A stretch of 64,000 bases of DNA, taken from the sequence record PQ356295.1, one strand, 5' to 3'. The position numbers were made by a program, and so were the translations under genes. Below are positions 1,267-29,293 of the stretch, piece by piece. Position 1 is the first letter of the stretch; each line of letters opens with the position of its first letter. Source of the DNA: Escherichia phage KKE7M. The notes under the pieces are model-generated. The model was not told where the DNA came from, ran no database searches, and was given only the letters and a program-made list of their open reading frames with translations.

Positions 1267-1438
1267 TACTGGTGAAGTTGTAAAATCTTGGGATGATCTT
1301 AGTGATATCCCTACAGATAAACTGATTAAACTGCGTGATGTTTGTCGTGATCATCTTAATGAAACATATAAAGAGTATATGGAAGCACGAGATCACAGTT
1401 TAGCTATCCAAATGGAACTCGCAAAACGTAATCAATAG
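1244..1438 (+). CDS. Hypothetical protein (64 aa)
   Basis: ATG preceded by AAGGAGG. Confidence 0.55.
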   Translation: MKTIGINDTGEVVKSWDDLSDIPTDKLIKLRDVCRDHLNETYKEYMEARDHSLAIQMELAKRNQ

Positions 1439-1495
1439 GTAAAACCATTTGGACTTTTTAGTCTAAAAATGCTAAAGTAATAATACGGAGGGAGT

Positions 1496-2059
1496 ATGAT
1501 ATTTCACATAACTCCCTATCTTTCTGGAGATATTGGAAAAGGTATCAATGACACAATAAGTGTCTTACCAGAAGATAGTTGGATTTGCCTAAGAGACATT
1601 GATACAATGTTTCTTCTTCCAGAACAACCTGCTTGGTTGGAATCAATAGTCCGTTCAAATCCTGATTTTGATGTTCTTGGTGCATCTTGTAATAGATTGG
1701 GATCAACATATCAATTATTTAATAATGAAAGAAGTGAAGATCCAAATATATTACACCACATTGAGATTGCAAAAAGAGCACATCTAGAATGGGGAAACTC
1801 AATAGAGGAAGTACCTACAGATGCTATCTTAGCAGGATTCTTTCTTCTCTTTCGTAAGAGTCTGTGGAATGAAATCCCTTTTGAGGAAAGATCAATACAG
1901 TTTGATATAATTTTCTCTAAAGCATTACATGCTAATAATAAAAGGCTAGGTTTACTACGTGGGTTATATTTATTTCACACCTACCGTTTAGGTAATGATG
2001 ATCCTAGAAAAGCTGTTTCACACCTTTTACATTGTCAAGACATGAATAAAATTATTTAA
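1496..2059 (+). CDS. Hypothetical protein (187 aa)
   Basis: ATG preceded by GGAGGGAG; compact spacing to neighbours. Confidence 0.6.
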   Translation: MIFHITPYLSGDIGKGINDTISVLPEDSWICLRDIDTMFLLPEQPAWLESIVRSNPDFDVLGASCNRLGSTYQLFNNERSEDPNILHHIEIAKRAHLEWGNSIEEVPTDAILAGFFLLFRKSLWNEIPFEERSIQFDIIFSKALHANNKRLGLLRGLYLFHTYRLGNDDPRKAVSHLLHCQDMNKII

Positions 2060-2068
2060 GGAGTTATT

Positions 2069-2755
2069 TTGGAAAATACAAAAATCGGTGTTGGTGTTAT
2101 TACTGTAGGTAAGCGTCCTCTTAAAGATTATCTTGTGACTGATCCTAATGCTACTTTTGTTGTGCAGTATGATCGGGAACGAAAAGGTGTTGCATATGCT
2201 CGTAATGAACTGATGAAAAAGTTTTATGACGAAGGGTATGACTACTGGTTTATTTTTGATGATGATTGCTATCCTGTTGTTCCAGGTTGGGAAACATATT
2301 TTGTAAAACAGGCGAAGGAAAATGGTTGGGATTTCTTTGGTATGCCTGAATACTTTAAAGATAAAGTAAAAGGTATTGAAGGGGAAGTGGTTATTTGGGA
2401 GCTAGGTATGTGCCAGTTTGGTATGTATTCCCGTGCAGTTATTGAGAAAGCTGGCTATTTCCGCTCATACACCCACGGTTATGGATATGAAGATGCAGAG
2501 TGGATTCAGCGCGTTCCACTGGCAGGTTTGAACCGAGGTATTCAAGGCGTACCATGTCCTATTCGAATTATGGCGTTTATCCATCCTGACGATGTGTTTG
2601 GAGATAATCCTTTACCTTTTGCGAATCTGTCAAAAGAAGAGAAAGAACAGGGGATTGGTGTAAACTGGGAACAATATAAACAATCACTGGAGGATCTTCG
2701 CAATGGTAAAACTTTTATCTCTTATGAGGAGGCTCAAAAATATGGTAAATCCTAA
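2069..2755 (+). CDS. Putative GT-A-fold glycosyltransferase
   Basis: TTG start after AAGGAG; DxD-type motif YWFIFDDDCYP and downstream YGYEDAEW typical of GT-A enzymes; function inferred from motifs only. Confidence 0.45.
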   Translation: MENTKIGVGVITVGKRPLKDYLVTDPNATFVVQYDRERKGVAYARNELMKKFYDEGYDYWFIFDDDCYPVVPGWETYFVKQAKENGWDFFGMPEYFKDKVKGIEGEVVIWELGMCQFGMYSRAVIEKAGYFRSYTHGYGYEDAEWIQRVPLAGLNRGIQGVPCPIRIMAFIHPDDVFGDNPLPFANLSKEEKEQGIGVNWEQYKQSLEDLRNGKTFISYEEAQKYGKS

Positions 2756-3716
2756 TACTCCTGTACTTAAGTGTGATAATAAGTTAGGCAGTGGGTGTGA
2801 TTACCATCGTATTGTAATGCCATTTGCGGGAAATACGTTTAAGCCTAAGAAAGACGTTTTAGTTTTTAATAGAGTGTATTCTCGTGGATCAGACGAGGTT
2901 AAACGCCTGAAGGCACAAGGTGTTAAGATTATTGTTGACTTAGATGACTTTTATTCACTTAACCCTGAACATTATATGGCTGGCGTATTTACTAATCACT
3001 CAAAGACTATTGTAGAGATGGTTAAGTTAGCAGATGTTGTTACTGTAACAACAGAATACCTAGCTTACAAAATTCGTCATTTAAATCGTAATGTTGTCGT
3101 TATTAGAAACGCACTGCCTTACGATGAAGGTCAATTTACTTTAACAAAAGACCGTTATTCTGACACGCCTATTGTTTGGGCTGGAGGAGCAAGCCATGAA
3201 CCTGATTTATCTCTTGTAGCTAATACATTTGATGATACACTATTGACAATTGCAGGGTATGAAGTGTATCCTTCTGCACCTGTTGGAAATAATAGTCAGT
3301 ATCTAACTACTGCGGAGTGGGTTAAAGTAAAACGTAAAATTCCAAATGCACAGTATAAACCTGCTATTAAAAATTTAGGTGAGTATATGTCTGTGTATGA
3401 CGGTCACAGTATTGCAATTGCTCCTCTGGTAGACAATGACTTCAACAACTGTAAAAGCAATTTGAAGATTTTGGAAGCAGGTGCAAAGGGTCTTCCTATT
3501 ATCTGTTCTCCTGTGCTGCCGTACTTCAATCCGGTAGATGCAAAGGCTGTTATTTATGCAGACTCTAAAGCATCTTGGCATTATGAAGTTGTCAAGCTAA
3601 TGAGAAACCCTAGATACACAGAAGATCGTGGTATGATGCTTGCAGAACACGTTCGTCTTAATTATAATCTTGCAGATGCCAATGAACTGCGTCGTCAAGT
3701 TATTGAAAGTCTTTAA
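2742..3716 (+). CDS. Putative GT-B-like glycosyltransferase, paralog 1 of tandem pair
   Basis: ATG 2742 after GAGGAGG (track ORF starts at 2703); C-terminal motif NCKSNLKILEAGAKGLPIICSP; colinear similarity to 3728-4672. Confidence 0.45.
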   Translation: MVNPNTPVLKCDNKLGSGCDYHRIVMPFAGNTFKPKKDVLVFNRVYSRGSDEVKRLKAQGVKIIVDLDDFYSLNPEHYMAGVFTNHSKTIVEMVKLADVVTVTTEYLAYKIRHLNRNVVVIRNALPYDEGQFTLTKDRYSDTPIVWAGGASHEPDLSLVANTFDDTLLTIAGYEVYPSAPVGNNSQYLTTAEWVKVKRKIPNAQYKPAIKNLGEYMSVYDGHSIAIAPLVDNDFNNCKSNLKILEAGAKGLPIICSPVLPYFNPVDAKAVIYADSKASWHYEVVKLMRNPRYTEDRGMMLAEHVRLNYNLADANELRRQVIESL

Positions 3717-3727
3717 TAAGGAGCGGT

Positions 3728-4672
3728 ATGCCTAATATTATTCTTGACACACGCGGAAATGAAAAGTATAGTGTATGTGATTTTCATAGAATCATTTTGC
3801 CATATAAACGCAAACTGACCATTAATCCTAAACATAATATTTTTGTGTTCAATGGAGTACCAACCCGTGGAAAGCCAGGTTTCCTGGCTCTTAAACAACT
3901 TGGGTTTAAATTGGTAATGGATCTGGATGATTCTTTAATTATTCCTGAAGGACATATGCTTGAAGGATTATTTGAAAATCAAATCCGAGATGATCTAAAA
4001 TGGTTCCTTGAAAGAAGCGATCTTGTAACTACAACAACTCCAGCATTAAAGGTTGAATTAAGCCAATACAATGATAATGTACATATTGTGCCTAACGGAC
4101 TACCTTTTGATGAAGGACAGTTTGTTCTTACGAAAGATCGTTATTCTAAAAGTCCACTGGTTTGGGCGGGAAGTGAAACACATAAACATGATTTAGCTAT
4201 TCTTCCTAGTTTTGGTAAAGATTTAACTTTATGTGGATTTCGTAGAGATCACGAAGAGTTAAGTAGTGCTCAATGGTTGCAAATTAAAGAAGATATTCAA
4301 CCAGATTGTGTTTACGAAGGTATTCGTCCTTATGAGTGCTATATGGAAGCATACGATGGTCATCAAATCTCCATAGCTCCATTAGTAAATAATCATTTTA
4401 ATAATGCCAAAAGTAATTTAAAAATTCTTGAAGCTGGTGCTAAAGGTTTGCCACTCGTTTGTTCACCACGAGAGAACTATTATACTGAAGAGTTTAAAGA
4501 TCTAATCTTCTTTGCTGATTCAGTTAAAGAGTGGAAAGATATTGTAGAATACTTAATCGAATCTCCTGATGTTTGTATTGAGAAAGGATTGGCTCTTGCT
4601 AAGTATGTAAGAGATAACTACAATATTGATGATTTAAATGAAACCCGCAGACTGCTTATCGAGGATTTATAA
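3728..4672 (+). CDS. Putative GT-B-like glycosyltransferase, paralog 2 of tandem pair
   Basis: AAGGAG RBS; shares blocks CD[YF]HRI, DLDD, LP[YF]DEGQF[TV]LTKDRYS, NAKSNLKILEAGAKGLP with the upstream gene. Confidence 0.45.
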   Translation: MPNIILDTRGNEKYSVCDFHRIILPYKRKLTINPKHNIFVFNGVPTRGKPGFLALKQLGFKLVMDLDDSLIIPEGHMLEGLFENQIRDDLKWFLERSDLVTTTTPALKVELSQYNDNVHIVPNGLPFDEGQFVLTKDRYSKSPLVWAGSETHKHDLAILPSFGKDLTLCGFRRDHEELSSAQWLQIKEDIQPDCVYEGIRPYECYMEAYDGHQISIAPLVNNHFNNAKSNLKILEAGAKGLPLVCSPRENYYTEEFKDLIFFADSVKEWKDIVEYLIESPDVCIEKGLALAKYVRDNYNIDDLNETRRLLIEDL

Positions 4673-4941
4673 TGAACACTTTTGATTTTGAGTATAAACA
4701 AGATAATAAAGAACCTATTATTGTTGAAGTAGATTACTATTATGAAGAACCTAATCCTTTCTCACGAGAAAGTGATTGGGATTATTATGGTGGTCTTATT
4801 GTTGATGGTATTAGGTTTTATTCTGGTACAAAAGAACTTTTTGATATAGATATTTCCCCATCGGAAATTGTTTACCAATTTAAGAAACATATGGAAGATT
4901 TGGAAATGCAATATATTATGGAGACAAACGAATCATTTTAG
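4672..4941 (+). CDS. Hypothetical acidic protein (89 aa)
   Basis: ATG overlaps upstream stop (TAATG). Confidence 0.55.
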   Translation: MNTFDFEYKQDNKEPIIVEVDYYYEEPNPFSRESDWDYYGGLIVDGIRFYSGTKELFDIDISPSEIVYQFKKHMEDLEMQYIMETNESF

Positions 4942-4953
4942 TAGGAGAATCAT

Positions 4954-6726
4954 GTGTCTTATGTTGTAAATAAATATGGGTATAACATTGATCTAAGTCA
5001 AGAAGGACATACTGGGTGTCCTCGTTGTATGAAAGGAGGACGTGATCGATCACAAAACAATTTAATGGTATATGGCTTAGATGCCGATGAAGACCATCGA
5101 GGCGCACATTGTTTTTCTTGTGGCTTTACTATCCCTGATCAAAAATGGTTAAATACACACGGCGAAGAAATTGAAGAGGAGGATATCTTGGGTAGTGAGT
5201 TTAATCCAGAAGTGCATGATAAGCTAAAAGCCAGCACTGGAACTAATCCAAAAGGTTATCGCGGTATTCGTGAAGATATCTCTAAGCCTTTCGGTGTACG
5301 CTATATGTACGATGAAGCCACTGGCGAAGTAATTTCAACACTATACCCTACAACTAAAGATTACAATATTGCTGGGTATAAACAACGTATTGATCCAAAA
5401 GATTTTTCGCATCCTATCGGTGAAACAGGAAAGGATTGTGATCTTTTTGGTGAGTTTAAATATCGTAACCACAGTGGTACTATTCTAATCGTTGGTGGTG
5501 AACACGATATGCTGGCTGCAACACAGATGCTAAAAGATTATAACAAGGGTGGTAAATACCCTGTTCCTGCTGTAGTATCTGGTACTTGTGGCGAAACATC
5601 TCTGCATAAGCAGCTTCAACATCGTTATAAATTCTTAGATCAATTTAAAAAGATTGTTCTATGTATGGACAATGATGAAGCTGGACGTGCAGCAGTTGAG
5701 AAATGTGTTAAAATCTTACCACGTAATAAAGTTTACGTGATGGAACTAACTGATGTTAAAGATCCTAACCAGGCGTTAGTAGAAGGAAAAATTGATCATT
5801 TTATTGATCGCTTTTTCAAAGCTAAACTGTACACACCTGCTGGTGTTTATGCTTCTAACGTGCTGTACGAAGCAGCCTTGGAATGCCTGGAAGCTAAAAT
5901 GATCACCCTTCCTCCATTCATGCGTGTTGCTTCTAATATGTTAGGTGGAGGCTTGGTAGAAGAAGAAATTACTGTTATACTTGCAAAAACAAGTATCGGT
6001 AAGACACTGTTGGTTAACGAGATTACGAAGCACATTATTCTTGCACACCCAGAACATACTCTTGGTATTTTATCTTTGGAGGCAACGTATAAGAAGTATT
6101 CTCGTAACTTACTGTCTTCATTCTTGCATATCCCTCTTCACCGTAAAACGAAAGAAGAGAAGGAAAAGATTTTAAAAGATAATGAAGAAAAGATTCGTGA
6201 TTTTTACGAACGGGAAGATGGAACACCACGTTTCTATGTTTGTGATGATCGTGGAGCTAACGTAGATGTGATTAAAGAGAAGGTTCTGGAAATGATTATT
6301 TATTTCGGAGTAACCATTCTTGTTATCGACCCTTATTCTGATTTGCTTTCTGGTATGGACGTGTCACAACAAGAGGAACTTGCGACGTGGCTCAAACGCA
6401 TTATGAAAGAGTACGCAATCACCATTGTTGTAATTTCACACGTTAAAAAGTCTTCTAACAATAGCAATGAACATATTGTAGAAGATGATGCAATGGGTAG
6501 TAGCTTCCTTGCTAAAGGTGCTGGTATCACAATTGCGCTGGAGCGTGATAAACAAGCTGAAGATCCTATGGAACGTAACCGCACATATTGCTACATTCTA
6601 AAGAACCGTGAGTTCTCAGAGACTGGTGCAGCAGGTAGTTTCTTCTATGAGATTAAAACAGCTACACTTCACGATTACGATCAATACACAAGTAACCCAG
6701 AGAATATTCCTGCTGGTTCTTATTAA
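4954..6726 (+). CDS. DNA primase/helicase (T7 gp4-like bifunctional)
   Basis: GTG start after AGGAG; zinc finger CPRC...CFSC; Toprim-like CMDNDEAGR; Walker A LAKTSIGKT and Walker B-like VIDPYSD. Confidence 0.9.
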   Translation: MSYVVNKYGYNIDLSQEGHTGCPRCMKGGRDRSQNNLMVYGLDADEDHRGAHCFSCGFTIPDQKWLNTHGEEIEEEDILGSEFNPEVHDKLKASTGTNPKGYRGIREDISKPFGVRYMYDEATGEVISTLYPTTKDYNIAGYKQRIDPKDFSHPIGETGKDCDLFGEFKYRNHSGTILIVGGEHDMLAATQMLKDYNKGGKYPVPAVVSGTCGETSLHKQLQHRYKFLDQFKKIVLCMDNDEAGRAAVEKCVKILPRNKVYVMELTDVKDPNQALVEGKIDHFIDRFFKAKLYTPAGVYASNVLYEAALECLEAKMITLPPFMRVASNMLGGGLVEEEITVILAKTSIGKTLLVNEITKHIILAHPEHTLGILSLEATYKKYSRNLLSSFLHIPLHRKTKEEKEKILKDNEEKIRDFYEREDGTPRFYVCDDRGANVDVIKEKVLEMIIYFGVTILVIDPYSDLLSGMDVSQQEELATWLKRIMKEYAITIVVISHVKKSSNNSNEHIVEDDAMGSSFLAKGAGITIALERDKQAEDPMERNRTYCYILKNREFSETGAAGSFFYEIKTATLHDYDQYTSNPENIPAGSY

Positions 6727-7221: not shown

Positions 7222-9801
7222 ATGGGAGCTTTTACTTTCGACATTGAAAGTAACAACTTGCTTAATGACGAAAGTGTAGATTACTTGGCAAGTCCATATC
7301 GTTTAAAAGATAGTTTTGCAATGCACTGTATTGTGTGCGAAAGTCATGATACTGGAGAGATTATTGCTTTCCATGATGGTGATAAATATCTTTTCGATGG
7401 TCGTCCGTATGTTGAGACTGACGGAAAGTATGAATACCGACTGGAGGAATATGAGCATTTAGAATATACCCATTTCCCTCTTAAAGATTTTCCTGATTTT
7501 GTAAATGGAACAGGTAAATTTAAAGGTAATTCAAACTATAAAATTACCAAAGTAGTTGGACACAACATCATTAACTTCGACTTACTGGCAATTAAATTAT
7601 TTTTTAAACTCAACTACAGTATTAAGTACAATACTTGGGGTAATAGTAACATTGAAATTTGTGATACTATGATCTTAAGTAAGACACTAAACCCTGATCG
7701 CTTCGGTGGTCATAGTCTGGCAGAGTTATCTAAGAAAGCTGGAGGGGATGTTAAAATTGATTTTAGAAAAAACATCCCTGAAACTGAAAGATTTAAAACA
7801 TTTGCAGCAGATATGCTGTATTACTGTATTTACGATAACAAAGCTAACACCGCAGTGTTCCGTTATTTAATGGAAGAGTGGGGTGATTATAGTAAGTGGT
7901 CTGAACCATTTAACTTAGAACAACGTGTAGCTGATATTATTACACGTCAAGAGCACCGTGGCTTTGCTTTCAATATGAAACAAGCAGAAGATAATATTCG
8001 TGATCTGGATGCTCGAATGGAAGCATGTCGTTTAGAGGCAGAACCTGTACTACCTCCTAAACCTGCTACTAAAGGTTATTTGAAATCATTCATTCCACCT
8101 AAACTACAGTTTAAAAAGAATGGTGAACCTTCAAGTAACATGATAAAGTTTGCAGAGAAACATTCTGGTGAACTTGTACAAAAAGAAGATGGTTGGTGGT
8201 TATTTGCATTAGGTAAAGAGTTTAAACTCCCTATTCCAGCAGAAGAACCTATTTGTGATCCTACAGTACCTGCTACTTTAGACGACACTACACATATTAA
8301 AAATTGGTTGGTTGGTTTAGGTTGGAGTCCATCTGAATATAAAGATAAAGATATCACTCTTAAATCTGGCACTAAGATTAAGAAAGATGAAGCACAAATG
8401 GAGAAAGCTATTCGTGACTATGTTGATCAAACATTAGCATCTAACTTCTGCCAGGATAGATGTGATCATCTGGAGTGCACACCAGAAACTTTGGAATGGA
8501 AACTAAGAGATCGTATTGCTAAAGCTAAAGGTCGTGGTGTTAAAGTGCTTACTAACCCTTCCTTTACAAAAGGGCAAGAGAAGGATATTTGTCCTAACTT
8601 GGAAGCACTAGGTGAAAAGTTTCCTTATGCTACGCAGATTGTGCAGTATCTTACGTATAAACATCGTAGGAACTCTATCCTAGGGGGTGGTGCTGATTGG
8701 GAAGAAGATGAAGAGGATTACGATAAAGGTTATCTGGCGGCAGTAAGGGCTGATGGTCGTATACCAACTCCTGCTGCAACGTGTGATGCAGCTACGTCTC
8801 GTATGAAACATAGATTAGTAGCAAACATTCCACGTGTAACATCTTTGTATGGGTATGAAATGCGTAACTTATTTGGTGTAGAAGTTCCAAAATACTTCCA
8901 GATTGGTTATGACTTCGATTCTCTTGAAGCAAAAATAGAATCACACTACTGTTGGCGGTACGAGCAGGAACCACACGAATATTGTAATGCTCTATTGTTG
9001 GAAAAACCTAATGATGTTCATACAATGATGGCTCGACGTATTTCTGATACTATTGGTCGTAAGTTTGAACGAAGCCCTGCTAAGTCTGTTAAGTATGGTA
9101 TTACTTATGGTGCTCAAGCTGCAAAAGTAGCAAAAACCATTGGTAGTGATATGTATACAGGACAGCTTGTATACGATGCTTTCTGGGAAGCTGCAAAACC
9201 TCTTGCTCTTCTTAAAGAACGTCTGCATGATTTTTGGGTTAAAACAGGTAAGAAATACATTCTTGGTATTGATGGTAGGAAAGTACCTACACGATCTGCA
9301 CACGCAATACTTAACTCTCTGTTCCAGAGTGGTGGTGTTATTTGTGCAAAAAGAGCAATGGTTATCTACGATGATCTTATCGAAGAAGAAGGATTAGCTG
9401 TTGACTTTTTTGTTGATGACTGGAAAAATAAGTCATTCGTTCAACAAATGATTGCATATCACGATGAAGCGCAGCTTGAAGTAACTCGTGATCTGGTGCA
9501 TTTTAAATGGTTCTCTAAAGAATCTTTAGGTTGGACTCAAGTTGATGATCCAGATGAACAAAAGAAAATTGATAAAGAATGTTTGGATAAAGTTAATGCC
9601 TGGAAAGAAGAGGAAGAGAAACGTACTGGCAAGATTTGGGCTAACGTACATGAGTCTCCAAAAGGTGGTTGGTTTACAGCCTACAGTCGTGCTGGAGAAT
9701 TAGCATCTATCGCTGTTAATAAAGCTGGTGAGTATTACAATCTTAATGTACCTCTCACTGCTGGTTACGATGTTGGTAACTCATGGGCGTCTTGTCACTA
9801 G
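7222..9801 (+). CDS. DNA polymerase, family A (Pol I-like with N-terminal exonuclease region)
   Basis: GGAGGGAG RBS; Pol A motifs KSVKYGITYGAQ (motif B-like) and YHDEAQLEV (motif C HDE); 859 aa. Confidence 0.9.
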   Translation: MGAFTFDIESNNLLNDESVDYLASPYRLKDSFAMHCIVCESHDTGEIIAFHDGDKYLFDGRPYVETDGKYEYRLEEYEHLEYTHFPLKDFPDFVNGTGKFKGNSNYKITKVVGHNIINFDLLAIKLFFKLNYSIKYNTWGNSNIEICDTMILSKTLNPDRFGGHSLAELSKKAGGDVKIDFRKNIPETERFKTFAADMLYYCIYDNKANTAVFRYLMEEWGDYSKWSEPFNLEQRVADIITRQEHRGFAFNMKQAEDNIRDLDARMEACRLEAEPVLPPKPATKGYLKSFIPPKLQFKKNGEPSSNMIKFAEKHSGELVQKEDGWWLFALGKEFKLPIPAEEPICDPTVPATLDDTTHIKNWLVGLGWSPSEYKDKDITLKSGTKIKKDEAQMEKAIRDYVDQTLASNFCQDRCDHLECTPETLEWKLRDRIAKAKGRGVKVLTNPSFTKGQEKDICPNLEALGEKFPYATQIVQYLTYKHRRNSILGGGADWEEDEEDYDKGYLAAVRADGRIPTPAATCDAATSRMKHRLVANIPRVTSLYGYEMRNLFGVEVPKYFQIGYDFDSLEAKIESHYCWRYEQEPHEYCNALLLEKPNDVHTMMARRISDTIGRKFERSPAKSVKYGITYGAQAAKVAKTIGSDMYTGQLVYDAFWEAAKPLALLKERLHDFWVKTGKKYILGIDGRKVPTRSAHAILNSLFQSGGVICAKRAMVIYDDLIEEEGLAVDFFVDDWKNKSFVQQMIAYHDEAQLEVTRDLVHFKWFSKESLGWTQVDDPDEQKKIDKECLDKVNAWKEEEEKRTGKIWANVHESPKGGWFTAYSRAGELASIAVNKAGEYYNLNVPLTAGYDVGNSWASCH

Positions 9802-9884
9802 TATCTATTTGATTTTAAAGGAGTTTTTATGTGGGACAACCTATTATTGCCAAGGTTGTTCCGCACTTTTAAACCATTTCATAA

Positions 9885-11998: not shown

Positions 11999-12730
11999 AT
12001 GAGCGAATTTGTAAACAACACCGCATTAAACTACCTGCAAACCCTCGAAAGCAACAGTGTAGATTTGATTCTTACTGACCCACCATATGCTATTTCTCGT
12101 GACACAAATTTTCAATCTGGAGAGCCTACTGGAAAAGATACGGATAGATTCCGTGTATCTTACAACTTTGGTGACTGGGATGTTGTAGATATTCCTTACT
12201 TTAAAGAAGTATTCAAAGAAGCCTATAGGGTGCTTAGAAAAGGTGGTACTTGCATAGTTTGGTATGATATCTGGAAGATCCAGGAGTTACGTGAAATCCT
12301 CGAACCGCTTGGTTTTCGTATGTTCCGTACTATTGAATGGATTAAAACAAACCCTGTACCCATCAACAGTGGTGTTAACTACCTTAGTAACGCTAAAGAG
12401 ATGGCTATTGTTTGTGTTAAAGGTTCGAAGCCAACCTTCAATGCCTCCTACCACAAGGGTGTGTTTGAGTATCCTATCTATCAAGGAGCAGATCGTTTTC
12501 ATCCAACACAAAAACACTTGACTTTGTTTTGTGACCTTATTAATATACATACCAACGAAGGAGATGTAGTCTTAGACTTCTTCTCTGGAAGTGCAACAAC
12601 ACAAGTTGCGGCACTTTTAACAGGTAGAGAATACTTAGGCTGTGAAGCCGATGTAAATATTTTTAAGCAAGCGGAGGAACGACTAAATGAGTACACTGAA
12701 CAGCAAAATCACCCTGAAGGCACTGATTAA
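11999..12730 (+). CDS. DNA methyltransferase (N6-adenine or N4-cytosine, beta-class motif order)
   Basis: N-terminal catalytic DPPY (LILTDPPYAIS) and C-terminal SAM-binding FFSGSATT. Confidence 0.8.
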   Translation: MSEFVNNTALNYLQTLESNSVDLILTDPPYAISRDTNFQSGEPTGKDTDRFRVSYNFGDWDVVDIPYFKEVFKEAYRVLRKGGTCIVWYDIWKIQELREILEPLGFRMFRTIEWIKTNPVPINSGVNYLSNAKEMAIVCVKGSKPTFNASYHKGVFEYPIYQGADRFHPTQKHLTLFCDLINIHTNEGDVVLDFFSGSATTQVAALLTGREYLGCEADVNIFKQAEERLNEYTEQQNHPEGTD

Positions 12731-24702: not shown

Positions 24703-25007
24703 GATGCGTTCTCATTACTTTTTAAATCACGATATACAGCTAATTCCCCAAGGTCTACAGAACCCGCTGAATGCACAAGTACAGCAGCACTAAGACTAAT
24801 GGCAGTAGTACCTGGGGCAATATCAGCAGGTAGGGAATACGCCCTTTGCGTCTCCTTATCACAGATAACCTTATACCCACCCAAATCCACACCAACTGAG
24901 AAGTAAACAACCTCAGATTGTTTAACTCCAAAGTGACGGGCTACTGCTTGTTTATTGGTTAAGATTCCGGTTGAACCTTTACCACCTTGGGAGAATAACT
25001 CGTTCAT
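24699..25007 (-). CDS. Hypothetical protein (102 aa)
   Basis: ORF overlapping start of the downstream gene by 4 nt. Confidence 0.5.
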   Translation of the reverse strand: MNELFSQGGKGSTGILTNKQAVARHFGVKQSEVVYFSVGVDLGGYKVICDKETQRAYSLPADIAPGTTAISLSAAVLVHSAGSVDLGELAVYRDLKSNENAS

Positions 25008-25030
25008 ATAAACCTCTTTGTTTTTCTAGG

Positions 25031-25052
25031 AAACCCCGCCTAAGCGGGGTTT
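25031..25052. other. Intergenic GC-rich hairpin AAACCCCGC-CTAA-GCGGGGTTT
   Basis: Perfect inverted repeat between minus genes; T-run is on the plus side, so terminator role for minus transcripts is doubtful. Confidence 0.35.
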
Positions 25053-25055
25053 TAC

Positions 25056-27125
25056 TTAAGGTGCCAATCTTGATGCTTTCCATGCAACGGCACGGGTTCC
25101 ACTTATACCGCTAGAAGAATCTCTGATTAAGATGGTAAATGTTGTATCAGTTGCCGCAGTGTATGAAATTGCAACAGGAGAACCAGAATCTATAAGGGTG
25201 AACTCTATAAACTCTGGTGGCCTCGACATGCCATGTGGTATTACTTGGCCGTGTGAGTACGTACCGCTACCAATTGCTTCGGTAATAACCCCTGAGTTAT
25301 TGTTACTTCTGCTTCCTGAGTGGTTAGCCCCAAGAGCAATCACTTTCCGCCCTGTAATCCCGAATCCGAAAGTGTTTCCAGTAATCAAGGTGTCATATAT
25401 GGTCCGTGAATCAGGAAGAGAACCAGATACCGCATTTATCACAACCCCGTACTGCATCTGCCGATCTGTTCTGCGATTGTACATGCTGTTGCCGGTTATA
25501 ACAGTTCCCGTTATAGTCCCAGCCCCTGCACCGGAATTGCTTACCACTACCCCCGCTCTGAATGTATTAGCCACATCAGACGAATCACCAATACCCGTAA
25601 TCTGGTTTCCTGATATTAAATTGTTATCTGGCAGGACAGAGGCGTCATTGCAGGTTATCAGGATCCCAATATCGGTAAAAGCGTCAAAAACGTTATTTGC
25701 CACCACATTACCAGGACCCCATATCTCTACCCCTTTCGGTGTATTTGCACCGTCGCCAAAGAATTTATTCTCAGTAACGATGTTACCAGCACTTCTGATA
25801 AGAATAGCAGGTCTGAACTGTGCAGAAGTCCGTAGGCTGTCATTATACCCGTGGTTATTGGTGATATGTGATTCACTTCCAGCGGCATCAATGCAGCAGT
25901 TACAGGAGTTAATATTATTTCTGTGGATTTGTACGTAGGCGCTCCCCCCATCGTATTTAACGCCGTTCCAGAAATTTAAAATCCCGCAATCCATCAACTG
26001 CCCAGCCTTGGTCAATTTAACTGCATTAAGATTATCCTTAGAGTCATTGATCGCACGGAGATACACATACTGAATACGTCCCGAATCTTCAGTACTCGGG
26101 CTCTCGCCGTTATCAATAGCGTATCTATCCTTCCCAAACGGCCCGTCAAACGTGAAAGTAGTAAATGGAAGATTGTTACCTAGTTGCGCACCTACGTATC
26201 CAGATGCACCAACAATGCTCACTCCAACTGGTTTAATGAGCGTAGCTGTGGCAATTCGTGCGTCGCCAATATGGGTTACGTGACTTTTAGTGTGGTACAG
26301 CGCCAACTGATAGGCGTAATAATCATCAGTTACCCCATCACATTTAGCGCCGTAATTTTTAGCGTTTGTCTCCTTGTATCCATTAAGCAACCCTACACAC
26401 CTCCAATTAGTAGACGTGTATCTTGCTAACGGTTGAGCTGGAGGAACAGTGCCAGCTGGAACGGTTAACGGCGACGAAATAGCGCCTTCATATACCCAAA
26501 ACAAACCAGTGGAATGGTCACGTATGGCTTCGGTATTTGATGTTATGACAACATATTCTGTCGAGTCTCCTGCGTAGCTGTACCCTGATGCCAACCTCTG
26601 AATAGTGACACCATCCTGCGCAGTTAACACGAGCGAAGAACCAAACTTAGAAGCAAGATTACTTCTCAATGAAGAATCACCAACACTAACCCACGCACCT
26701 GTTCCAACACCACCTGTTGATGTAGGGGTTGAGTCAGCGGGAACAGCTTTAGGGAAAGCACCATCCCATGTATAGCACTGTCCACCAGCAATGTGCCAAA
26801 CAGCATCGGTTGAACTATTGGCTGTCGCCCCTTCTTCAAAGCTACCATCAACAAGAGTTAACCCAGCCTCGGCAAGACTACGACGCCACTGTTCACGATC
26901 ATTAAGAAGATTGTTATTCAACTCTTCCTGAACAGTATTACCATTTGAGGATTGTATTAAATCTGCTCCATCTGTATCTTTCAACTGGGTGGCTAAAACC
27001 ACCCCAGTGTCAGTAAGAAAGTTGGAAACTGTGCTTTTAACAGTCTTATCAGGTTGGTCTAAAACCAGGTAATCAGAACCATTAACTTTTGATGTTTCGG
27101 GTAAATTAGTAATTGTAGTTGACAT
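25056..27125 (-). CDS. Tail fiber / tailspike protein sharing an N-terminal module with 16013-17974
   Basis: Motif YTWDGAFPKAVPADSTPTSTGGVGTGAW matches YQWKGSLPKVVPANSTPTSTGGISDTAW in the other fiber; Gly/Asn-rich repetitive C-terminal half. Confidence 0.6.
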   Translation of the reverse strand: MSTTITNLPETSKVNGSDYLVLDQPDKTVKSTVSNFLTDTGVVLATQLKDTDGADLIQSSNGNTVQEELNNNLLNDREQWRRSLAEAGLTLVDGSFEEGATANSSTDAVWHIAGGQCYTWDGAFPKAVPADSTPTSTGGVGTGAWVSVGDSSLRSNLASKFGSSLVLTAQDGVTIQRLASGYSYAGDSTEYVVITSNTEAIRDHSTGLFWVYEGAISSPLTVPAGTVPPAQPLARYTSTNWRCVGLLNGYKETNAKNYGAKCDGVTDDYYAYQLALYHTKSHVTHIGDARIATATLIKPVGVSIVGASGYVGAQLGNNLPFTTFTFDGPFGKDRYAIDNGESPSTEDSGRIQYVYLRAINDSKDNLNAVKLTKAGQLMDCGILNFWNGVKYDGGSAYVQIHRNNINSCNCCIDAAGSESHITNNHGYNDSLRTSAQFRPAILIRSAGNIVTENKFFGDGANTPKGVEIWGPGNVVANNVFDAFTDIGILITCNDASVLPDNNLISGNQITGIGDSSDVANTFRAGVVVSNSGAGAGTITGTVITGNSMYNRRTDRQMQYGVVINAVSGSLPDSRTIYDTLITGNTFGFGITGRKVIALGANHSGSRSNNNSGVITEAIGSGTYSHGQVIPHGMSRPPEFIEFTLIDSGSPVAISYTAATDTTFTILIRDSSSGISGTRAVAWKASRLAP

Positions 27126-27133
27126 TTTTACTC

Positions 27134-29293
27134 CTATATATAAAATTTTTGTGTTGTTACTAAATCTTCTCCAGATTTAGTGGCTAATGTAATTCCACTT
27201 ATGGTGGCAATCTCAACATTTACCTGTTTAAGAGTGATATCTTGCAAGTAGCAATTCAAAGGCACATTACCCATATAAAACACTTGGGATTTTGAATTAA
27301 GAACAGTTATTGAATCATGCATTATTTGTGGGTAAGCCCATATGTATTGATATAAACCAACAAACTTCTGGTCATTCAATACGATATTGCCTATAATCAT
27401 TTTCCACAAATATGTTCTATAGTTTGATTCAGGATCAAAGCCATATAATGGTGCTAGAGTTGCATCTGGAACAAACCCTGCAAGATAATGTATCTTATCG
27501 TAACTAAAACCTAGTTGCTCATTAGGTATTGTGATAGCGTCGAAAGATCTTTCCATCTTACCTTCCAACAACCAATCATAACATTCTGAACAATAAAAGT
27601 CGAAGTTCTCTGGGATATAATAATCTTTAGGGAAGTTAACAAACTCCATCATACCATTACCTAAGATGGATGGTACAAATGGTAACAATGTAACTTTCGC
27701 TCCAGGGTATGCTAATCTGGTATCTGTTGCAAATTTAGCAACACGCAGTCCTAATGTTTTAGATAGGAATGCATAATATTCATCATATGGTGTACCAGTT
27801 TTATAATTTTTAACTGTACCAACATCTTGTGCATACAATCCAGTTTCATTATTAAATGCAACTTTGGTTGTATAATCATAAATACACGGTAGATTGGTAG
27901 CTGTATTATACCACCACCACGGTTCACCAACCTGAATAATAACCGGAAGATCATTAGCAGCGGATATAGAAGCTATCTTATTTATTACACCTTGTAAATA
28001 ATTCATCCCTTCATCAATTGAAGGAGATAAAACATAACTTGGTGGCTCATAACCTGTAGCAGCCAGATCATCATTCCAAGTATGTTGTACCCATTCTACA
28101 GGACACACTGTACTCATAAGTTCAAAACTTAAGGAGTTCATTACTGTGTAGCCCATAGCTTTTGCATTAGCGTGGAAGTTATCAAACCAGGCTTCTGTTG
28201 CTGGGTTTAAATATTCTGTTCTATTCAAAGCCCATTTATTAGATCCAGCATCCCAACTAAATTGATAATAGTGTGACATACCATTATAGTGGTTAATCAT
28301 ATCCCTATAACCTAATCTGTAGGTGTTAGAAATAACTCGCTCTGGGGTAAGGTTATACATATCATCATAAGATGTACACATTCTTATAGTGTGTGCTGGA
28401 ACATTTAAATTACCCATATTCATCATACTATAACCCGTATCAGGTTCCAGTATGGTAAACTTAAAGGAAAGATCCTCATTGTCTACAGGAATAATATCTT
28501 CAATTTCTTGATACCTTGTGGAGATCAAGGAGAAGAACATATTATCTATCTGTGTAGTGTCAACAACAATATCATTTTCTGGCCCAGATTTTAAATTTGA
28601 GAAATCTAATTTTATTGTTGCTGTTTTACCATCCTCTGAAACTTCTTCTGCATAAAAGTTTAGAGATACATAATGAACTGTTTCATCCTTCAGTGTCACT
28701 GTTAAGGATGGCAATAATTTTTCTTCTTTTAATCCAGGAACACCTTGACTAAGTTCCATTTTAAACCAAAGTTTCTCTTTACTTAAGTCAGAATGTTCTT
28801 GGTAGCCTAATCCTTTGTGATCATATTTATCGTAAGTTGACCAAATAATCCCAGCAAGACCAGCCACTGTCCTATTAACCATTCTTGCTGTGAAAGAATC
28901 ACCATTAGAGATAATAGAACAACTTTCTGTTGCTTGAGAATCTATTGTCCAAAACTTAGGATCAAACATTCTAGACTTCACAACAGGCCAAGTTAGCGGG
29001 GTCGTATTCGATTGATTAGTCGTAATAACACAACGAATTTCTTCATTGATCATCATGTTATTTTGACTTATGCTAGTAATCTCAAGAGTAAAATAAAGAT
29101 CTAAAGAGTTTGCCGGACGTTCATATACATCAACCACTACAGTAGCAGAATCTGCATCAGAAGGGAACGTTACTGTTCCCTGTTTAGCTACATAATCTCT
29201 ACCAGCGACCGCCGTTCCATCGACGGTCTTATAGCTGAATGAACTGGCATTTACTCTCGTATTTCGAGTTACAGTAAAAATAGCCTGTTTCAT
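27134..29293 (-). CDS. Large tail/baseplate structural protein (719 aa)
   Basis: ORF colinear in tail module. Confidence 0.5.
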   Translation of the reverse strand: MKQAIFTVTRNTRVNASSFSYKTVDGTAVAGRDYVAKQGTVTFPSDADSATVVVDVYERPANSLDLYFTLEITSISQNNMMINEEIRCVITTNQSNTTPLTWPVVKSRMFDPKFWTIDSQATESCSIISNGDSFTARMVNRTVAGLAGIIWSTYDKYDHKGLGYQEHSDLSKEKLWFKMELSQGVPGLKEEKLLPSLTVTLKDETVHYVSLNFYAEEVSEDGKTATIKLDFSNLKSGPENDIVVDTTQIDNMFFSLISTRYQEIEDIIPVDNEDLSFKFTILEPDTGYSMMNMGNLNVPAHTIRMCTSYDDMYNLTPERVISNTYRLGYRDMINHYNGMSHYYQFSWDAGSNKWALNRTEYLNPATEAWFDNFHANAKAMGYTVMNSLSFELMSTVCPVEWVQHTWNDDLAATGYEPPSYVLSPSIDEGMNYLQGVINKIASISAANDLPVIIQVGEPWWWYNTATNLPCIYDYTTKVAFNNETGLYAQDVGTVKNYKTGTPYDEYYAFLSKTLGLRVAKFATDTRLAYPGAKVTLLPFVPSILGNGMMEFVNFPKDYYIPENFDFYCSECYDWLLEGKMERSFDAITIPNEQLGFSYDKIHYLAGFVPDATLAPLYGFDPESNYRTYLWKMIIGNIVLNDQKFVGLYQYIWAYPQIMHDSITVLNSKSQVFYMGNVPLNCYLQDITLKQVNVEIATISGITLATKSGEDLVTTQKFYI

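Follow-up and report, generated by a model that had tools for sequence, protein, structure and literature searches.

A cassette of four glycosyltransferase genes lies at positions 1496-4672 on the plus strand of a 64,000-nucleotide stretch of DNA from Escherichia phage KKE7M (PQ356295.1; this whole stretch is called the window below). We found that the cassette is a real, conserved and previously annotated cluster, and it is well supported that its four enzymes are soluble, act sequentially and are probably fed by dTDP-rhamnose that the phage makes itself. As to the acceptor, we tentatively favour the proteins of the phage virion, which this rhamnose-fed cassette is predicted to glycosylate. 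The first-pass annotation of the window had described a cluster of three genes at 2069-4672; these three genes stood, whereas a fourth glycosyltransferase gene at 1496-2059 had been missed, and the middle gene of the three more probably starts at 2742.

Across the cassette region (1400-4950), the window is 99.2% identical to Escherichia phage JohannJBalmer (Bas62, MZ501084), a phi92-like phage of the genus Justusliebigvirus, and more than 50 further records match the same region at 98-99% identity. KKE7M is likewise a Justusliebigvirus, of the myovirus type. In the records of these relatives, GenBank names two of the genes "putative glycosyltransferase" and two "putative disaccharide synthase", and RefSeq gives the name "glycosyltransferase" to all four. 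PHROG families, AlphaFold2 models and fold matches identify all four products, here called GT187, GT-A228, GTB1 and GTB2 in gene order, as glycosyltransferases. NCBIfam profiles gave no match to any of the four, and PDB sequence searches with GTB2, GT-A228 and GT187 returned nothing meaningful.

The first gene of the cassette (1496-2059, +) encodes GT187, a soluble glycosyltransferase of 187 aa that matches phrog_14179 ('glycosyltransferase') over its full length (E 5.5e-113) and carries an R-D-I-D motif of the DxD type. Its ATG is preceded by the ribosome-binding site GGAGGGAG, and it ends 9 nt before the next gene. No match was found in Pfam, as in NCBIfam; the 47 homologs are of similar size (175-220 aa), and the family accompanies GT-A and GT-B homologs in unrelated phages. 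The second gene (2069-2755, +) has a TTG start preceded by an AAGGAG ribosome-binding site and encodes GT-A228, a protein of 228 aa in phrog_2456 (E 2e-79). The first-pass annotation had called it a GT-A-like gene with a DDD motif, and the model bears this out: AlphaFold2 predicted a GT-A fold with one Rossmann-like alpha/beta/alpha domain (predicted local distance difference test score, pLDDT, 87), and the residues D64-D65-D66 of the FIFDDD motif (nt 2258-2266) are invariant among 18 homologs. Through Foldseek, we found that the best solved match of this model is STIV A197 (E 5e-6), followed by LH3, ColGalT1, WrtF and TarP, and its viral fold neighbours include GT2/GT25-like proteins. A collagen-like tail fibre was considered as the target on account of the likeness to LH3 and ColGalT1 and was rejected, since the likeness, at TM-scores of 0.36-0.46, is one that GT-A folds show in general.

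The last two genes encode GT-B enzymes resembling family GT4. GTB1 (2742-3716, +; 324 aa) and GTB2 (3728-4672, +; 314 aa) both belong to phrog_7162 (E 3.9e-149 and 4.2e-145). The longest open reading frame of GTB1 starts at 2703 (337 aa), and a GAGGAGG ribosome-binding site lies at 2726-2732; because of this site and the length of database cluster P0023 (324 aa, 98.8% identical to GTB1), the start is most likely 2742. The AlphaFold2 model of GTB2 (pLDDT 94) has a two-Rossmann GT-B fold with a C-terminal donor-binding domain, nearly all of its top 50 PDB fold matches are GT-B enzymes, most of them GT4, and the best are BshA, GlgM, MshA, PglA and TreT (E about 5e-10). In the donor-binding region K228, S229, K232 and E235 are invariant, so that the second Glu of the EX7E motif (E235) is kept, and the first position is Ala227. 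GTB2 also passes the cut-off of the Pfam profile Glyco_trans_1_2 (PF13524; 26.8 bits against 25); GTB1 scores 14.7 and 17.9 bits, under the Pfam cut-offs, and yet is homologous to GTB2 at E 5e-83. The two proteins are colinear and 41% identical over 324 columns. Both the colinear paralogs and the GT-B-like character proposed at first reading hold.

The same annotation had taken the duplication to be recent, which proved wrong. Orthologs in other phages are 73-81% identical for GTB2 and 62-78% identical for GTB1, compared with about 41% between the two copies, and both copies occur in Justusliebigvirus and in Phapecoctavirus. Because each copy has orthologs of its own, 72-81% identical in other genera, and both genera hold both, the duplication is placed before the split of Justusliebigvirus and Phapecoctavirus; by these sequence comparisons it is estimated to be old, with both copies retained since. 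Divergence between GTB1 and GTB2 is even along the two domains, apart from conserved stretches at residues 121-140 and 201-240, and therefore gives no clear signal of one donor shared by enzymes with different acceptors. The enzyme number varies among relatives: all four are present here and in Phapecoctavirus, three (without GT-A) in the loci L016-L018, and two in Klebsiella phage FKP3.

Directly behind GTB2, and overlapping its stop codon (TAATG), orf89 (4672-4941, +) encodes a very acidic protein of 89 aa (pI 4.1) with unassigned function (phrog_4240, E 8e-35). It is co-conserved with the cassette in large myoviruses, where it follows the GT-B genes in L014, L016-L020, L024, L099 and L106-L116. 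The five genes from 1496 to 4941 are separated by at most 12 nt or overlap, and each has its own ribosome-binding site. A sequence scan found no terminator-like site ahead of the primase-helicase gene (4954-6726), which follows the cassette directly and is itself followed by DNA polymerase A (7222-9801), in agreement with the first-pass annotation. Because of the tight spacing, the separate ribosome-binding sites and the lack of a terminator-like site, the cassette reads as a single operon running into the replication genes. Promoter and terminator scans performed no better than chance, and the timing of expression therefore cannot be read from the sequence. No hydrophobic segment was found in any of the four transferases (maximum 19-aa hydropathy about 1.2), and by this prediction they are soluble cytoplasmic proteins with no membrane segment. 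GT187, GT-A228 and GTB2 have an acidic pI (5.1-5.6), that of GTB1 is mildly basic (8.2-8.9), and T4 beta-GT stands at 9.05; as a discriminator between a DNA and a protein acceptor, the isoelectric point was rejected as too weak.

The sugar donor is suggested by genes elsewhere in the phage genome. In JohannJBalmer, RmlA, RmlC and RmlD pass the NCBIfam equivalog cut-offs and RmlB is assigned by annotation; the rml genes lie about 70 kb away, outside the window. RmlC, with 169 phage records, covers essentially the same set of Stephanstirmvirinae as the GT-B family, with 142, a co-occurrence that may in part reflect shared ancestry. In E. coli, rml genes are present in only some O-antigen loci, and a broad-host-range phage that needs rhamnose would therefore gain from having its own pathway. 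We propose that the phage RmlABCD enzymes make dTDP-L-rhamnose and that the four transferases act in turn to build a short rhamnose-containing oligosaccharide on an acceptor other than DNA. One enzyme would attach the first sugar and the others would extend it, with GTB1 and GTB2 adding successive sugars or forming different linkages. The likeliest acceptors would be phage structural proteins of the head or fibre, which could be glycosylated in the cytoplasm before assembly.

This choice of acceptor comes from homologous cassettes, since the GT187, DDD GT-A and GTB1 families travel as a unit in unrelated phages of quite different architecture, with 41-46% identity (E 1e-45 to 1e-75). In four related phages of 62-65% GC (L029, L033, L035 and L120), the three-family unit stands directly after the major capsid gene, and its homologs are 37-46% identical (for the three phages measured, E 1e-45 to 1e-75). 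The order in L029, L033 and L035, the only loci of these that extend far enough to show the connector gene, is terminase, portal, protease, capsid, the three transferases, head-tail connector and tail genes. In Pseudomonas prophages and related contigs (L100-L103, L118, L119, L030, L034 and L127), a GT-A/GT-B pair precedes terminase, portal and capsid, with a metallopeptidase between the pair and the terminase; in L030 antiterminator Q is encoded upstream of the pair. The three-family unit of L125 is just upstream of terminase and portal, and L097 has two GT187 copies between terminase and portal/capsid, together with a GT2 enzyme, a polysaccharide deacetylase and two methyltransferases, and a UDP-galactopyranose mutase about 5 kb upstream of the terminase. 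Cassettes adjoin terminase and portal in L097, L101, L118, L119 and L125, and overall at least four unrelated lineages have homologs of these enzymes beside capsid, portal or terminase genes. In temperate relatives the GT-A/GT-B pair is in the late/structural region and not near the integrase. Distant contexts also hold nucleotide-sugar enzymes, including epimerases, aminotransferases and a radical SAM enzyme, which shows a recurrent theme of phage-encoded glycan building; the neighbourhoods of the distant homologs P0055 and P0057 were uninformative.

The GT-B family was twice seen beside proteins with Ig-like domains. A small Big_2 Ig-like protein is encoded just upstream of the GT-A/GT-B pair in L100-L102, L118 and L119 (about 8600-9270 in L101), and in Burkholderia dolosa the only bacterial homolog found that is clearly chromosomal and not part of a prophage adjoins an intimin/invasin adhesin (L005 3025-5586). 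One tail fibre of the phi92-like phages is annotated with an intimin-like domain. Ig-like domain proteins are a possible class of acceptor.

Several points weigh against virion proteins as the acceptor. The argument goes by association from distant relatives, and KKE7M itself has the cassette in the replication operon and not in the structural module. Large myoviruses keep it fixed between a tellurite-resistance (Ter) cluster plus a cell-wall hydrolase on one side and the primase gene on the other. Some of the top PDB matches of the GT-B enzymes have small molecules or lipid-linked sugars as substrates. Donor specificity for rhamnose is putative. A literature search, with the phi92 genome/proteome paper and Freeman 2023 outside its coverage, found no report of glycoproteins in phi92-like virions and no experiment on the acceptor of the cassette. 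In a large environmental group, moreover, a GT2/GT-B pair lies among DNA methyltransferase genes and near the terminase, and its placement among DNA methyltransferases would fit a role on DNA equally well.

DNA was one of the two acceptors put forward at first reading, as base glycosylation against restriction, and had been published before. Olsen 2020 (PMC7552041) noted that these phages have the whole dTDP-rhamnose pathway and suggested that hydroxymethylated nucleotides are rhamnosylated. In this explanation, the enzymes would glycosylate the bases of phage DNA with rhamnose or an oligosaccharide, in the style of the T-even phages, as a protection against host nucleases. The location agrees with it: the cassette is directly upstream of primase-helicase and polymerase, and beta-gt and gene 42 of T4 likewise lie between helicase and polymerase genes, and by position alone the first-pass idea was reasonable. 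The varying number of enzymes among relatives (four, three or two) recalls the T-even arms race, and homologs lie among DNA methyltransferases in the environmental group mentioned above. GT-A228 also has weak local matches to phrog_842 (the T6-type second glucosyltransferase) and to the TAGT family (PF20691, E 6.8e-5). All Pfam matches of GT-A228 are sub-threshold, however, and the TAGT match reaches 23.3 bits against a gathering cut-off of 27.5 and is confined to the 60 residues around the DxD motif (residues 16-75, profile positions 37-96 of 205). A tblastn search of the window with T4 beta-GT gave noise only, and no DNA glycosyltransferase is among the top 50 fold matches of the GT-A228 and GTB2 models.

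The chemistry and the behaviour of these phages also argue against modified bases. The first-pass annotation had seen no hydroxymethylase in the window, and we extended this result: T4 gp42 gave noise only (E>3) against both the window and the whole JohannJBalmer genome, so that no ThyA-family hydroxymethylase was found in either. The sole thymidylate synthase of the related genome is ThyX-like, and no TET/JBP enzyme is annotated there, a result from annotation only, no direct search having been made. The gene in question (JohannJBalmer bas62_0219, L004 5762-6733, outside the window) encodes a divergent ThyX-like protein of 323 aa that scores 35.8 bits with TIGR02170 against a cut-off of 87.9, and its thymidylate synthase activity is putative, taken from annotation. 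According to Maffei 2021 (PMC8594841), phi92-like phages (Bas60-62) are "exceptionally susceptible" to restriction-modification (RM) despite their putative glycosylation machinery. Picton 2021 (PMC8565348) reported that BREX restricts phiPATM and phiPau by about 7 logs, and these two are absent from its set of phages sensitive to BrxU, a modification-dependent enzyme. The records of phiPATM and of phage Paula (probably phiPau) are 98.5-98.7% identical to the window across the cassette, so near-identical phages are BREX-sensitive and not BrxU-sensitive. DNA glycosylation as anti-restriction is therefore disfavoured by the missing hydroxymethylase, the sensitivity to RM and BREX and the lack of sensitivity to BrxU, and we consider a T-even-like modification of the bases improbable. 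More improbable still is a rhamnose-containing glycan placed on DNA without a hydroxymethyl-pyrimidine handle, which, if sparse or site-specific, could leave the DNA open to RM and BREX and invisible to BrxU and block some other defence; if true, such handle-free glycosylation would add a new class to the known DNA modifications, within a common group of coliphages.

The sugar and the enzyme families would suit the host envelope, the second acceptor named at first reading. The transferases might build a lipid-linked (undecaprenyl) glycan, or one of the lipopolysaccharide or enterobacterial common antigen type, at the inner membrane face and so alter the surface of the infected cell, for example to exclude superinfecting phages or to keep progeny off debris. 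Assembly of O-antigen and capsule typically involves GT4 and GT2-like enzymes as well as rhamnose, the fold matches include PglA, TarP, TarM and WrtF, and the phages of this group, whose tail fibres include many glycosidases, are specialists in surface glycans; expression with the early genes would suit superinfection exclusion. However, the cassette comes without a flippase, ligase, polymerase or initiating phosphoglycosyl transferase, and the four proteins have no membrane segments. Known surface-conversion systems are a feature of temperate phages, with expression from the prophage. The phage studied here is strictly lytic, and the late/structural location of the pair in temperate relatives, away from the integrase, also speaks against this role. 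Nothing specific supports modification of a host surface glycan, and we regard it as unlikely, although it comes next after virion proteins.

The surroundings of the cassette bear on a further alternative. Upstream of it in JohannJBalmer (L001 8700-18750, just ahead of the window) is a tellurite-resistance-type set of genes, TerC, TelA, vWA-TerF-like and TerD, together with genes for a haloacid dehalogenase (HAD) phosphatase, a phosphoribosyltransferase and a macrodomain protein. The order TelA, TerD, cell-wall hydrolase, glycosyltransferase cassette and primase persists in large myoviruses whose proteins are as little as about 50% identical. The cassette could then act on a soluble metabolite that it makes or modifies, such as the product of the adjacent Ter/phosphoribosyltransferase/HAD module, or could inactivate a host immune signalling molecule by adding sugar. 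The best PDB matches of the GT-B enzymes (BshA, MshA, GlgM and TreT) take small acceptors, and the conserved order and the phosphoribosyltransferase, HAD and macrodomain genes upstream point the same way. Four transferases are, however, many for one metabolite, Ter genes are absent from all small-phage contexts that carry the cassette, and the gene order of the myoviruses may be mere whole-genome synteny. Either small molecule seems a rather poor candidate, a little behind the envelope. A functional tie between the cassette and the Ter cluster, which we also considered, is possible and not needed, as small phages carry the cassette without Ter genes.

The enzymes, being soluble and cytoplasmic and by prediction co-expressed with early genes, might instead glycosylate a protein outside the virion, a host or phage cytoplasmic target in host takeover, comparable to toxin glycosyltransferases or EarP. 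The protein-acting GT-B enzymes SdgB and GtfC are among the fold matches. On the other side, no specific similarity to any known protein-targeting family was seen, and the capsid-adjacent placement of the cassette in other phages would be left unexplained, so that we think such a target quite improbable. Virion proteins accordingly stand first in our ranking of acceptors, followed by the host envelope, a small molecule, DNA and lastly other proteins.

Some further features were recorded around the cassette and in its relatives. Upstream of GT187, the window encodes a protein of 169 aa (238-747, +) with a signal-peptide-like N-terminus and a Pfam Hydrolase_2 domain (SleB-type cell-wall hydrolase), which is distinct from the endolysin annotated in the related genome. 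At the end of the replication block lies a Dam-like N6-adenine DNA methyltransferase gene (11999-12730, +), whose product is the only DNA-modifying enzyme seen near the cassette. The 64-kb window is colinear with the JohannJBalmer genome from end to end except for a tail-fibre segment and a small indel: a tail-fibre region of about 2.5 kb (24703-27237) has no counterpart in JohannJBalmer and represents a swapped receptor-binding segment, and about 500 bp of JohannJBalmer are missing near 9.8 kb (9832-9851). A cluster of 15 tRNA genes, including two for tRNA-Met(CAT), lies at 52360-55223 on the minus strand, and beside it in the related genome are NAD-salvage genes (nicotinamide phosphoribosyltransferase and phosphoribosyl pyrophosphate synthetase). 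JohannJBalmer bas62_0080 (L001 1-2551, outside the window) is an intein-containing UvrD/Rep helicase gene. Five matching records, MG065639, MG065645, MG065656, MG065689 and MG065650, are named 'Campylobacter phage A150/A145/C3/A110a/B15'. In the cassette region their identity to E. coli phi92-like phages is 98.5%, or 76% (Phapecoctavirus-type); they appear to be coliphage genomes deposited with Campylobacter as the labelled host.

Few coliphages match the phi92-like phages in breadth of host range; the latter are part of the BASEL reference collection and are candidates for therapy. A rhamnose coat on the virion, if true, would make this the first group of Gram-negative phages with documented virion glycosylation, and it would explain the full dTDP-rhamnose pathway in a lytic phage as a donor supply independent of host O-antigen genes. 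The title of Freeman 2023, a paper cited in PMC11256854, reports an effect of mycobacteriophage particle glycans on immune recognition, and a virion glycan here would therefore bear on antibody recognition and clearance in therapy. Should the acceptor instead be DNA, a metabolite or the host envelope, this would still resolve a puzzle flagged in two papers.

Among known systems, the seroconverting Gtr systems of O-antigen modification, which are found in temperate phages, differ from the cassette in gene content and life style: no membrane genes of the GtrA (flippase), GtrB or GtrC (serotype-specific) type are annotated, no hydrophobic segment was found in the transferases, and the phage is lytic. 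STIV A197 of an archaeal virus (PDB 2c0n), the top solved match of GT-A228, is likewise a small viral DxD GT-A protein without a known acceptor, at 21% identity over 136 columns, and carries no functional information. The bacterial GT4 enzymes BshA, MshA, GlgM, PglA and TreT are the best fold matches of the GT-B proteins and share the donor-site Lys and Glu with them. The phage enzymes are nevertheless only 12-17% identical to these and shorter (314-324 aa against 360-410 aa), carry an invariant DLDD in the N-terminal domain and have A227 in place of the first Glu of EX7E. The T-even phages (T4 alpha-GT and beta-GT; TAGT-type in T6) also encode GT-B and GT-A enzymes beside replication genes with variable gene content. 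The present cassette differs from theirs in its lack of sequence similarity to T4 beta-GT, in its sub-threshold and local TAGT match, and in that no hydroxymethyl-pyrimidine pathway was found with it. The phages that carry it are susceptible to RM and BREX, and a modification-dependent nuclease does not attack them. T-even phages draw on UDP-glucose from the host, and the present phage brings a dTDP-rhamnose pathway of its own.

The glycan machinery of chloroviruses and mimiviruses is comparable in organisation, as the virus there supplies a nucleotide-sugar pathway and several soluble transferases for its own particle. Nucleotide-sugar synthesis in giant viruses includes rhamnose, and the viral proteins nearest to GT-A228 in fold include GT25-like and megavirus enzymes of this group. 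The likeness is one of fold only (10-20% identity), and the giant viruses have eukaryotic hosts and characterised glycans. Glycosylation of capsid proteins in the mycobacteriophages Che8 and Rita (Freeman 2023, cited in PMC11256854) is an established precedent for virion proteins as acceptors, and, as far as the latter account goes, these phages carry their glycosyltransferase genes far from the structural genes. The present system differs from theirs by its Gram-negative host, its myovirus type and its four enzymes with a complete Rml pathway. As in the mycobacteriophages, to the extent that they are described there, phage-encoded transferases that act on the virion need not sit in the structural module, and the cassettes of relatives adjoin capsid, portal and terminase in several lineages.

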